Shown: piece by piece, positions 8,793-43,229 of the stretch | Layout: every line of letters begins with the position of its first letter | Position numbering within the stretch: position 1 is the stretch's first letter | Origin: Podarcis vaucheri | Lineage: Eukaryota | Strand: one strand, 5' to 3' | DNA: 64,000 nucleotides | Assembly (NCBI GenBank): GCA_965113315.1 | Contig: OZ220365.1 | Position numbers and translations under genes: made by a program | The notes under the pieces: model-generated | Told to the model about the DNA's origin: nothing | What the model saw: only the letters and a program-made list of their open reading frames with translations | Database searches by the model: none

Positions 8793-9369
8793 CTTTGTTC
8801 TATCTTATTTAAGAATTTCAAGATCAGGATGTGGGCCAAATTAGACATCACAATAAATGTGTGACTACTGCCAAACACAATGGCTGTGTGTTCAGATTAT
8901 AACTTGAATTTCAGGGAACTAAAGGACAACAAGGAACATAGCATGGGGGATCCGCCAGGGCAATCACCCTGGGCTCATTTTCCTGGGGGAGGCTAGCTAC
9001 TCATGCCACCCTCCCCAAGCCAGACCTATGCCATTTTGCAAGGCTGGGATCTGATCAGATGGCAGCCTTGCAAAGCATCGGGGGGGGGTGCACGAGAAGG
9101 ATTCCATGCACCCCTTGATCGCAGCCTTGCCCCCAAGAGGCTGGGATCAAGGCGTGCATGACTGTTGCATTCTTCTCACGCCGCCCTCCTTGAGCCGCTT
9201 TGCGAGGCTGGGAGCTGATCAGCTTGTCCCCCATAGTGGCTAACAACTTATGGCCTTTTGAACTACGTGCAGCAAATCCTTGGTTGATTCCAACCGCCTA
9301 CACCAAATACCAGATCCTAACTGATCCACTATTGACCAGAACAAATATGGAGCCACATAGTACCTCACA

Positions 9370-9760
9370 GAATTCCTCAAAGAATTGATGCTTTTGAATT
9401 ATGGTGCTGGAGGAGACTCTTGAGAGTCCCATGGACTGTAAGAAGATCAAACGTATCCATTCTTAAGGAAATCAGCCCTGAGTGCTCACTGGAAGGTCAG
9501 ATCCTGAAGCTCAGGCTCCAATACTTTGGCCACCTCATGAGAAGAGAAGACTCCCTGGAAAAGACCCTAATGCTGGGAAAGATGGAGGGCACAAGGAGAA
9601 GGGGACGACAGAGGACGAGATGGTTGGACAGTGTTCTCAAAGCTACAAAGATGAGTCTGACCAATCTGCGGGAGGCAGTGGAAGACAGGAGTGCCTGGCG
9701 TGCTCTGGTCCATGGAGTCACGAAGAGTCGGACACAACTAAACGACTAAACAACAACAAC
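9370..9760 (+). mobile_element. BovB (RTE clade) LINE, 5'-truncated 3' end
   Basis: Translation IDAFELWCWRRLLRVPWT..LQYFGHLMRREDSLEKTLMLGKMEG.RRRGRQR.RWLD; (CAA)n tail; probable TSD AGTACC(T/C)CACA at 9359-9369 and 9761-9771. Confidence 0.95.
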
Positions 9761-39061: not shown

Positions 39062-39963
39062 ATTGCACCCCTGAGCCAGTCATGCCCCCTTTCAAGATAT
39101 CCTTTTCACCTTCCCCCTGGCTTTCCATCTCTCCCAACAGTGAGGTCACATCTACATTTAAAGCACCTACATTTACAGCACTATTATACCACTCATAACA
39201 GTCATGGAAAATCTTGGGAACTGTAGGATGCAGTCCATTCCCACTGAGCATTCTCAGTCCTCATTGAGCAGCCTTTGAATTTTGCCCCCACCCCTTCAGA
39301 TTTTTTATTGTGAATACCTTCCCCTAAGCCCACTGATACTTTTCTCGTGTGTGTGTGTGTGTGTGTGTGTATAGTGTAGTTTTCAGATAATGAGTTTGCA
39401 TTTCATTTAAAAAAGTAAACTCTAAGTCCTCTGTCAATCTAGCGGGATTTACATCATCATTAATCTAATGCTTGTTTAATGCAATGTTGTAGACAGGGAA
39501 ATGTCTCTTTACATTTAATTATAAAAATAATTTGAACAACGTAACCAGATGCTCATGATTATACTGTGGTCAAAATAAAACCCAGCAATGAACTCAGCAG
39601 CATGATAAGCATAAGGTTTGTGTATTGTTTTCCATTCTACATTGTAAAGAAAACATATTTCTATTGCATTTTTTAAAAAAATCAACATCATCATAAAAAA
39701 TCAACATCATCGTACTTACAGAACAGCAATTTTAAAATGCCTTCTGACTCTTTATTTCAATAAAAGTTTTCCAGTCAATTAGTTGACAGTGTAAGAAGAT
39801 ATATCCTAGACTGCTGCTGCTTAACAATGTATAATTGCTAATGATTTTTCTTATCTTTTTCATACCGTGTTTCTTAATTTAAACCTATTATGTTGCATTG
39901 TCAAGTTACTTCCACATTTTAATCTATTTCTTGTTTGGAGAATAAAGGATTGCTATGACCAAC

Positions 39964-40720
39964 TGTCAGAGCTGCTTCCAGATCCGAGCTCACAGAGGAT
40001 CACGCTAGCCAGCATTCACTGTATAAAAGTCTTTATTGATTTACAGTTTCCATTTTCAAGCTGTAGCGCGCAACTCTACGTCTTATAAGCTAGACCGGCG
40101 AAGCTCTGTCTGAGTCTCCGCCTCCTGTACACCAACTTAATACCCTAGCCTTACTCCACCTTTTCCTCCTGACCGTTCTTCTCTGGGTCCCTCTGCCCCC
40201 CGTGGTCTCTTCCTTCCGGGACTCTTCTGACGCTGACCCCCCGGACCCTTCTGTCTCCTTGCGGCGGGCTTTAGGACCTGGCTCCCTTTCCGGGCTGCTT
40301 ACTGTGCCGCCTTTCTTTGCATTTGAACTTGGCGCGCGCGCCCAACCTCCCACTTTCCGTTTGACCGTTTCTTCTCTCTCCGATGGAGGTGTGGCCACTC
40401 CTGACTTATGTCCTCCCCCCTGCGGCGAGCCGCCTGATCCCGATGCCTGGCGCCCTTCCTCCCCACTGCGCTCTGTTGGGGATGTTGGCCCCGATTTCCA
40501 ACTGCTGCTCTCTGAACCCCCTTTTGTCCCTTCTTCCTGGGGTGTCCCCCTAAGCTCCCCCCTTGCTCTGGTCACTGGCGCTCCTTTCTGTGAATCTTCC
40601 GATTCACTGGAAAGACTCGGAGATCTCGGGTCGTTGTCATCGCTCATCTTTCCTTCGGACTCCTCCCCTTCACTCTCTGTTTCCTCCCTTGCCCTCGCCT
40701 CTGCTCCTGAACCCCTGACA
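39964..40720 (-). mobile_element. Solo LTR (probably Gypsy/Ty3), 757 bp, containing a 209-codon open frame
   Basis: Perfect terminal inverted TGTCAG...CTGACA; perfect 5-bp TSD CCAAC (39959-39963, 40721-40725); minus-strand TATAAG (40087-40082) and AATAAA (40037-40032); CpG-rich. Confidence 0.9.
40090..40719 (-). CDS. LTR-borne open frame: S/E/G-rich disordered region plus Arg-rich C-terminal motif (first ATG at 40647, 185 aa)
   Basis: ORF track 40090-40647, extending upstream without a stop to LTR base 2 (VRGSGAEARAREETESEGEESEGK-MSDD..). Confidence 0.45.
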   Translation of the reverse strand, partial: VRGSGAEARAREETESEGEESEGKMSDDNDPRSPSLSSESEDSQKGAPVTRARGELRGTPQEEGTKGGSESSSWKSGPTSPTERSGEEGRQASGSGGSPQGGGHKSGVATPPSEREETVKRKVGGWARAPSSNAKKGGTVSSPEREPGPKARRKETEGSGGSASEESRKEETTGGRGTQRRTVRRKRWSKARVLSWCTGGGDSDRASPV

Positions 40721-43229
40721 CCAACTATTGATAAAGGAAGGCCTTTTCAAAAATAAAATAAAACAACAAAGTAGATTGCCCAATATGTCCTTGAGTTAAG
40801 GAATTCTGGCTTCAGGGGTCCACTGAGATTCTGCATTACTGATATTAATACATTTGCTTGCATCTGTATCTATCTCCAAAAATGCATTTTGCACCTGTTC
40901 TGCCTATGCAAGGGAAGCACCCCATTTTCATTAACCCCTCCTACCAGCATTCTATGTCATATCCCACGATATTCCAAAGGATACGCCAACCCTCAAGATT
41001 TGGGGGGCATGGAGACAAAACTGGGATTGAGGAATTGGCAAAAAATGGACTGCCCTTCCTTAGCCAAGCAGGCCTTAGCTGAGTGGTACTATCTTAGCCT
41101 CCTCAACCCTTTTCTGCTGCATCTGCAGAACAGCAGCCTTTTTCAGGAGTCAGGATGGTTTGGCCAAATAGCCCCACCCATGAAGAGTAAAAGCTTTGAG
41201 ACACTTGTGGCTGGTTTTTTGGGGGGAGGGGGTCATATTTGTTTGGAGGCTGTCATTGACAGTGGAGACAGATAGCAGGTGGCGTGCCAGACCCAGAAGG
41301 GGAAACGCCAAAGTAGCACTACTCCTTTGGGTCTCTCCTTTAGGGTTCAATGAGGCCAAGACCACTCCCCCATGGGCAACTGATTGTGGATGAGCTTGTT
41401 CCTAGGTCAGAGATTGGTGGAGAAGAGATGTAAATTAATCTGACTTCCAAGTAAGTGGTAGAATGCTGGGGAGCTGTGTCTCTGATAAGGGTATGAATGC
41501 AGCTTGTGAATGGGATGTTACAAGGTGTATGTCTGAACCCACATATGTGTGTGCCATGTGTATAGACCTTACTGAGACGAACGGAAGCTTTTGCATGGAT
41601 CCAGGACGTACACTCTTTGAAAATGCATGTGTAAGGTGAACCCCTATGTCTAATAAAGAATCTGTCCACGCTGGAAGGTTAAAAAAAAAGGCTTATTACT
41701 CAGAAATGGAAGACATGAAATGGTTATTACTTCAGACAGAAAGTTTATAGTTTTGTGGGCAACAGGTAATCATTTAGTAGATACAGACAACTTAATTCTA
41801 GTCTCAATGCTGGAACTAGTCTCCATATTGTCCAAAATGCATATATTCTGGTCACTGTTGTCAGTTTATTAGATAATGCATCAACATACAGAGAGCTGCA
41901 GTTTATACCATGTTTTCTACCATCTCTTGTTCAGCTACTGCAGTTTTTTCCTATAAATAACCAGAGACTGTATCACTGAAGTCAGGGGAGCCTTATGATT
42001 GACAGTGCTGGGAACACTGTCACTTCACAATGCAATTAACTAGGGTACAACCACATTGATTTCAGTAGCTCATGAGGTATGCCAAGCATACAGATAATCA
42101 GAGGTTTGAATGAATGGAAGTGCCATTTACATAGTATTGCATTGTAATAGGGCTTCATAGGAGACTGAAAATGGTTAAAGAACTAGGAGTTTCAAGTATT
42201 GAGTTTCCTGAAGGTTTCCTTGTATTTTTATGGCTCAAAAAAAAGGCTGATTTTGAAGGCCTATTTCTGAACTATTGCTCATGACTGTGAAGAACAAAAG
42301 CTGGGATTTTAAAGAGGTATCTAATTTCTGAGAAACATAAGCCCTCTGGGGCCCTTTGAAAATTCCCACCTAGTACATAATTAACTTTGTTCTCTGGTTC
42401 AGACTTAAGAGTCTGTATCGACTCAACAGGAACAGTAGGGCAATCTGTCAAAAGGTATATTCAGTGAAATATCCTTTGTCGGGTCTTCTTTTGCAGTACA
42501 AAATGTGTTGAACGATCATTGCTGAACCAATTAATGTTCACAGATTAGTATATATATTAGGGGTGTGCATCGAGCACAAGATTCAGTTTGAACGCCAAGT
42601 TGGTGCCTTGAAAAACAACCTGCTTCAGCTTGGAATAACTTGGAGGCTGCCTGATTCAATATGGAGTTCCAGTCCCCTCTGTTCCTCCCATCCCATTTCA
42701 CGATTGGATAATTTAAAAATTACTACAACCTTTCTCCCCCGAACCCATTTGATAGAAGTTGTTGGAATTTGTAGGCATACCCTATCCCCCGCCCCCGTTG
42801 AGTGGGTGGAGCCTTCAAAATTAGAGACAAATGGGTCATAGGACTTTTGTACTAGACACAGCTAAAATGCATTTTCCATCCAACTTTTTAAATTATTTTT
42901 GACCACAACTGAATGACATTTATAGGCAAAGTACTTTTTTATGGGAAAGAACGCCACCAAATTTCAGAAGGATGGCTGCAGTGGTTTTCTTGCAAGTGTA
43001 GCTATTATAGTTTTGGGGCAAGTGAACAAGGAATTGCGTCATCTCCACAGTGTTTTGTGGGTAATTGGTCTGGAAATTGCAGGCATGAGAGTGAGAAAAC
43101 TGCCAAACTGCATACAAATGGGTCCAATAGCTTTCTTTGGAAGCGGGGATTGGGCCTCCTGTCCATAATCCCCATTTTTTAGCTCTGCACTCTCCAAGGA
43201 TCAAAACTCCACACAATCCCTTTTATAGT

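Follow-up and report, generated by a model that had tools for sequence, protein, structure and literature searches.

Protein-coding sequence that overlaps the U3 region of a long terminal repeat (LTR) is familiar from retroviruses, in which HIV Nef and MMTV Sag are separate proteins made from spliced RNAs. Among LTR retrotransposons, the plant centromeric chromoviruses of CRM group A carry a targeting motif encoded in the LTR (PMC3059260; PMC3605345). The Tf1/sushi elements, which include the vertebrate V-clade (sushi-ichi, Amn-ichi/ni/san), are described as self-priming, the primer being the 5' end of their own RNA (10.1101/2022.12.06.519325; PMC4600332; PMC6317226). In the copia elements Ty1 and Ty5, short motifs in the poorly conserved integrase C-terminus give import and tethering, and Ty5 targets subtelomeric regions (PMC7459421). 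Read-through into the 3' LTR (plant chromoviruses) and self-priming (Tf1/sushi) are already known. We describe here an LTR from a lizard genome whose family combines a self-priming layout with a Pol that continues through the whole of U3.

The window, a 64,000-nucleotide stretch of the Podarcis vaucheri genome (GenBank assembly GCA_965113315.1, contig OZ220365.1), contains a 757-bp solo LTR on the minus strand (39964..40720). The element has TGTCAG...CTGACA ends and a 5-bp target-site duplication (TSD; GTTGG on the minus and CCAAC on the plus strand), with the upstream copy at 40721..40725 and the downstream copy at 39959..39963. An initial annotation had reported this LTR together with a minus-strand frame that opens at LTR base 2 and runs 209 codons (40090..40719) to a TAG at 40092-40090, and had proposed that the frame encodes either an LTR-borne C-terminal tail or an accessory protein. 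The landmarks lie where they were claimed to be: an internal ATG (Met25; 40645..40647), the sequence TATAAG 2 nt past the stop (40082..40087), the polyadenylation signal AATAAA (40032..40037; invariant in 12 of 12 aligned leaders), and a product that ends in the Arg-rich motif RRTVRRKRWSKARVLSWC...SPV (motif at 40129..40182).

Taken alone, the window copy says little. Its LTR frame stays open in 1.6% of 5000 dinucleotide shuffles, and any of the three sense frames does so in 4.5%; the coding region holds T at only 66 of 631 bases (~10%), and the other two sense frames contain 4 and 8 stops. An open frame in a single copy is only modestly beyond chance, and the family data decide. An open frame on the plus strand (40094..40756) was rejected as a gene: stops break it in 4 of 10 subfamily representatives, it has no Pfam match, and it is likely a compositional shadow of the sense frame.

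A genome search with the window LTR gave 40 scored matches of 3433 candidates, all ~99% identical. Two LTR pairs among them delimit 6565-bp full-length elements (L031 and L032) with a 5-bp TSD and a polypurine tract (PPT), and the window LTR, assigned to subfamily A, is 99% identical to both LTRs of these parents. They encode Gag with a zinc knuckle and then, in the -1 frame, protease, RT, RNase H, integrase, an SH3-like domain and a weakly matching chromodomain. Past the chromodomain, the pol frame continues through ~160 acidic residues, the polypurine tract (GAT GTC, where T is LTR base 1) and all of U3 before it reaches a TAG. This is the same stop that closes the 209-codon frame, directly after an 11-nt segment complementary to the primer-binding site (PBS). 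Because Pol is read across the polypurine tract and on from LTR base 2, the 209 codons form its C-terminal end and not a separate gene.

The two parents are not themselves intact (a premature stop cuts RT short in L031, and in L032 the frame shifts at the chromodomain), and the junction recurs throughout the family. In 20 of 27 full-length elements the chromodomain and LTR base 2 share one reading frame, a positive answer to the check proposed in the initial annotation; at least 1300 codons are open upstream and on to the conserved stop in 11 of the 27. In subfamily B, frames of 1553-1567 codons hold 120 of the best 150 chromodomain matches. Genome-wide, 946 LTR-PBS junctions fit one pattern, and among 30 loci chosen by the PBS pattern alone the LTR start was recognisable in 29, with an open frame to the same stop in 27 of the 29. 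At the overlap of gag and pol, L031 has G GGA AAC in the gag frame (L031:2168-2174) ahead of a 10-bp stem; we take this heptamer to be identical to the -1 frameshift site of PEG10. The stability of the stem after this slippery-like site is not unusual (z -0.64).

The Pfam order of the parent domains is gag, PR-RT-RH-IN, and their best relative of solved structure is Ty3 Gag-Pol (E 2e-137). Among named proteins, the closest come from Podarcis muralis and P. lilfordi, and in one P. muralis Pol the entire tail is present, with 82% identity. Profile searches for the tail found matches only in Podarcis records and other assemblies; they are silent on other squamates, the terminal motif being too short to detect. 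Domain layout and self-priming PBS assign the window LTR to a young sushi-type (Tf1/sushi) clade of Gypsy chromoviruses. Like the Tf1/sushi elements of the vertebrate V-clade, the family has Gypsy PR-RT-RH-IN followed by a chromodomain, a non-tRNA PBS complementary to a self-primer with flanking duplexes, a 5-bp TSD and TGTYA...ACA ends (PMC6317226; 10.1101/2022.12.06.519325; PMC4600332). It differs in that Pol runs on beyond the chromodomain for ~370 residues, covering the whole of U3 plus the self-primer, and in that the chromodomain is cage-less; our searches found no such description for vertebrate members. Several copies are nested in or beside relatives (L013, L019, L033, L042 and L050), some inside pol of older subfamilies, and head-to-tail tandems with a common LTR occur among them. 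One solo LTR (L025:1501-2393) has its last 136 bp tandemly duplicated, the duplication beginning directly past the self-primer.

The LTR frame is maintained across subfamilies. LTRs of 753, 756, 757, 760, 801, 802 and 825 bp contain ORFs of 208, 209, 209, 210, 224, 224 and 232 codons, respectively, and the part after the stop measures 125 or 126 nt throughout. U3 length differs in-frame, and the frame is kept even though the 3' parts of the LTRs align at only ~70%; the stop codon holds its position and is either TAG or TAA. Third codon positions change at about twice the rate of first or second positions. Over 10 subfamily representatives, omega is 0.40 for the LTR part (2dL 91 against omega = 1), 0.39 for the pre-LTR tail, 0.085 for the chromodomain and 0.077 for RT, compared with 2.05 and 1.13 in the two shifted frames of the LTR alignment. 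On 34 intact ORFs omega is 0.42 overall, 0.37 on long branches and 0.76 on short branches. The dN/dS check proposed earlier is answered by these values, which place the LTR frame under purifying selection. The three outcomes that had been named as fatal to a coding role are absent from the family: the consensus frame is unbroken, dN/dS lies well away from 1, and pol does not stop ahead of the LTR.

Constraint is uneven along the LTR ORF, with omega of 0.19 over the first 50 columns, 0.64-0.65 over columns 51-150 and 0.26 over the last 50. It is tightest in the 13 codons RKRWSKARVLSWC of the terminal motif, where omega is 0.06 alongside many synonymous changes. Fourfold sites are invariant at 8 of 33 positions in the LTR ORF versus 15 of 59 in RT, so the LTR ORF as a whole is not constrained at the DNA level. 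The exception is the block of codons WARAPSSN (40321..40344, minus strand), in which 24 nt are the same in 8 of 10 representatives, third positions included, and which is likely a regulatory element lying under the frame. The block is GC-rich and, in our reading, presumably resembles an E2F plus CHR-type site.

Individual copies behave differently from the family. Changes private to single subfamily-A copies comprise 17 synonymous and 32 non-synonymous (28% synonymous expected), a near-neutral pattern, and the three private changes of the window copy are all non-synonymous. In a wider LTR set, 35 of 47 ORFs were classed as intact and 12 at first as broken; the breaks look copy-specific, and one of the 12 (L107) has an open ORF with only a deletion past the stop. 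The pattern suggests that copies drift after insertion and that the window's solo LTR is probably a passive remnant.

Searching with the SH3_Tf2-1 family led to a second clade at 54-58% Pol identity. In 15 of 20 fetched loci of this clade, the LTR begins TGTCAGGGAA and a frame runs from base 2 for 75-110 codons. These frames carry an Arg-rich run and a Cys-Trp near the end, mostly RRRLGVKQLLCW, which aligns with RKRWSKARVLSW, so that the Arg-hydrophobic-Trp arrangement (Arg-rich...LLCW) matches in the two clades. Omega in the distant clade is 0.40, with 1.6 and 1.4 in the shifted frames (13 longer frames, two shorter and divergent frames being omitted). The Trp codon lies 20 nt ahead of the primer in both clades; because this distance is equal, promoter spacing and protein constraint overlap at the Trp codon. 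Part of the conservation may accordingly be promoter-level, given the V-L-x-W spacing fixed in both clades and the WARAPSSN block conserved as DNA. In a single copy (L269) from a family whose chromodomain is more canonical, Pol stops right past the chromodomain.

Sequence complementarity also points to the mode of priming. The PBS of the parents is complementary to LTR nt 610-620 (window 40111-40101, minus strand), a segment that overlaps the last Pol codons, can form an 11-bp helix with the PBS and is the putative 5' end of R. In 25 of 27 full-length elements the predicted fold has 10-11 bases of the primer paired with the PBS, compensatory changes occur at 4 of 11 PBS-primer pairs (in 12 sequences selected from mismatch-free copies), and distant families retain the same PBS-LTR complementarity with other sequences. 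The element thus likely self-primes, with transcription starting inside the ORF. The earlier statement that the frame occupies U3 is correct in that all of U3 is covered, and is probably incomplete, the frame likely also covering 22 nt of R beyond the transcription start. Directly after the PBS (L031:1071-1076 and equivalents) stands a near-constant C that is not templated by the DNA upstream of the primer, and the 1-4 bases past it differ among copies that are 99% identical; this C and the variable bases possibly reflect cap copying plus untemplated addition.

The predicted start bears on two points of the initial annotation. TATAAG, considered as a TATA box, differs in most subfamilies and falls past the predicted start, in a hairpin loop that varies freely, so it is not a conserved TATA box. 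TATTAA (40137..40142), inside codons V-L-S at -31 from that start, is the better candidate, as a candidate only; it is lost in subfamilies C and D, in which V/L-L-x-W is kept by synonymous change. Expression from solo LTRs through the ATG at 40647 fares poorly as well. Met25 occurs in 8 of 10 subfamily representatives and is absent at that place in C, D and the Podarcis relative P0003, and private changes are near-neutral. Because Met25 lies 536 nt upstream of the predicted start, a solo LTR would not express its product from its own promoter. Contigs of four runs taken as RNA cover 30 of 30 element bins, a figure that lacks a silent-stretch control and hence is not evidence of expression.

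The tail appears to be disordered. The AlphaFold2 model (9 sequences) has a mean pLDDT of 41.5, with a low-confidence helix at the terminal motif, which comprises an Arg cluster and a short predicted helix. Neither Pfam nor PDB gave a meaningful match or a known domain for the LTR peptide or the tail. The tail is acidic to the middle of the LTR part, followed by basic clusters at codons 120, 152 and 180-187. We had also considered that the terminal motif might resemble SAM helix 1 or Myb starts and that the chromodomain might end in an HxLxP motif; no search supported either idea. The chromodomain itself matches Pfam Chromo at E 0.004, below the curated cut-off, and HP1-family chromodomains are the top 12 of its 13 PDB matches (E 0.008-0.14). 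At what we take to be the three HP1 cage positions, its residues align as D, K and T, which indicates a chromodomain without the type I (methyl-lysine-reading) aromatic cage. Cage loss and tail are not linked by the present data, because another Podarcis Pol (P0030) has an intact cage and yet a ~120-residue tail. That tail contains RRSARL, which we regard as resembling nucleosome acidic-patch motifs.

Insertions of the family are unevenly distributed. From 150 subfamily-B matches, 10 on small contigs were dropped and the rest merged within 50 kb, leaving 130 sites on 19 large contigs; 47 of the 130 lie no more than 2 Mb from a contig end (4.8% expected). For subfamily A, 7 of 35 sites lie within 2 Mb of an end. 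As a position control we used a LINE represented in the window by an RTE/BovB-like fragment (9336-9749; the BovB-like label is our own assumption), of which 0 of 150 matches fall within 2 Mb of an end, the LINE being an older family and not age-matched. Both contig ends are enriched overall, with one favoured end per contig for 92 of 97 LTR-TTAGGG junctions on large contigs, among the junctions listed. One 41-Mb contig holds 23 of the 130 B sites (3.4 expected) and also most matches of the SH3_Tf2-1 family search, an excess of LTR elements such as a W chromosome would show.

LTR ends adjoin TTAGGG-type repeats in 122 cases. Under a strict pattern, 18 of ~175 subfamily-B host junctions lie in TTAGGG-type repeats, as do 7 of 36 readable flanks among 40 fetched, and such arrays make up an estimated 0.35-1.2% of the assembly; no telomeric flank was found at 30 subfamily-A LTR loci. 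Many of the young copies are embedded in TTAGGG-type arrays, mostly towards one end of each large contig and in a constant phase of the repeat, with TSD GTTAG, CTAAC or GTAAC (for example L037, L049, L051, L057, L185-L187 and L221-L224). Lacertid acrocentrics have (peri)centromeric telomere-like arrays (PMC7290949). Target-site preference was rejected as the sole cause of telomeric insertions: a matrix from 108 non-telomeric junctions predicts only a 1.2-fold excess, and exact telomeric 5-mers, present at 2 of those 108 junctions, allow perhaps 3-fold; neither estimate reaches the observed share. The bias does not single out the tail: it could also arise if copies are retained in gene-poor arrays, if the arrays amplify, or through the chromodomain itself.

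We favour the reading, at a probability of about 0.7, that the 209 codons are the end of Pol and form a selected, predicted-disordered integrase tail with likely import and chromatin-tethering signals, the solo copy in the window being likely passive. Of the alternatives offered by the initial annotation, the C-terminal tail of Pol/integrase is the one borne out, by the frame joined to pol in full-length parents and by purifying selection. On the genomic RNA, the LTR-encoded codons would stand at the 3' end only, reached by ribosomes from pol, and the 11-nt segment would be the RNA 5' end that primes reverse transcription, by analogy with Tf1. Because the chromodomain has lost its methyl-lysine cage, we propose that short motifs of the tail, chiefly the terminal Arg cluster and helix, would supply import and tethering in its place, and that this would bias insertion toward chromosome ends and TTAGGG-type arrays. 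We put this functional part, drawn by analogy, at slightly worse than an even bet.

One parallel for such a role is the integrase C-terminus of Ty1 and Ty5. The basic clusters of Ty1 are 29 residues apart, to be set beside starts at codons 120, 152 and 180-184 here; unlike here, the copia tail lies between IN and RT, outside the LTR, and its partners are known (PMC7459421). The resemblance to CRM group A, in which the polyprotein likewise extends into the 3' LTR, has further limits. Those elements belong to another clade and kingdom, use a tRNA-Met primer where the PBS here is self-complementary to the LTR, and have a CR motif in place of a chromodomain, whereas the lizard elements retain a cage-less chromodomain upstream of the PPT and an LTR part of 75-232 codons. 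That the lizard sushi chromoviruses converged on the plant CRM design, the cage having been lost and the Arg-helix of the LTR-encoded tail binding a factor of telomeric-repeat or pericentromeric chromatin, is an unlikely extension of our reading. If true, vertebrate LTR retrotransposons of this kind would direct themselves to TTAGGG arrays, and a single DNA stretch would act at once as targeting peptide, core promoter and reverse-transcription primer.

A different function for the same tail deserves the most attention among the competing explanations. The tail could be real and selected for a role in the particle or on the RNA, whether it binds cDNA or RNA, stabilises Pol or is a spacer required only to avoid premature stops, the end bias having another cause. 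Its Arg-rich end, mixed charge and weakly constrained middle would suit such work, no subfamily-A locus lies in telomeric arrays, and a stop at the very end of U3 would presumably leave a short 3' UTR. Against this, the terminal motif is as constrained as RT and recurs at 54-58% Pol identity, beyond what a spacer needs, and the chromodomain cage has been lost. We regard this explanation as possible and lean against it.

The remaining explanations deny that the frame is simply part of Pol, or that it is a coding frame. As in retroviral U3 ORFs, coding overlaps U3 here, and a Nef- or Sag-like accessory protein with its own start or spliced RNA, made also from solo LTRs, would fit the presence of Met25 in 8 of 10 subfamily representatives, some database gene calls that begin at it (P0007) and the donor-like GTAAG with which the PBS opens. 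We consider it highly improbable, as the frame is continuous with pol and is its end: no separate ORF or conserved start was seen, Met is missing in C, D and P0003 and lies upstream of the predicted start, copy-private changes are near-neutral, and GT..AG ends occur at 0 of 15 joints shown in four runs taken as RNA (contigs only, and so a weak test). Least credible of all is the view that a U3 rich in purines and poor in T, together with promoter conservation in a very young family, leaves the frame open as a side effect. The low T content, the shuffles that keep some sense frame open, a nearly open antisense frame and blocks conserved as DNA all speak for it, and it is largely refuted by an omega well below 1 in this frame alone in two independent clades, by in-frame length changes across LTRs that are only ~70% alignable in their 3' part, and by the TAG/TAA switch in place.

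In the open literature covered, which included PMC3601003, PMC11011659 and PMC4131045, we found no vertebrate element with a selected U3-spanning tail and none with a TTAGGG insertion bias. The elements described here form a young clade, of which a single genome holds no fewer than 120 long open Pol frames. To our knowledge, insertion-site choice by vertebrate Gypsy elements, relatives of the source of PEG10 and RTL1, is largely untested; in this clade tethering is testable with protein fragments, since there is a candidate motif of 13 residues, the chromodomain is cage-less and the insertion bias can be measured. Solo LTRs of the sushi-type clade give rise to spurious stand-alone gene calls in lizard annotations. 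For the elements themselves, the layout would mean that protein, promoter and self-primer information share the same bases, and that U3 length is limited to in-frame changes.
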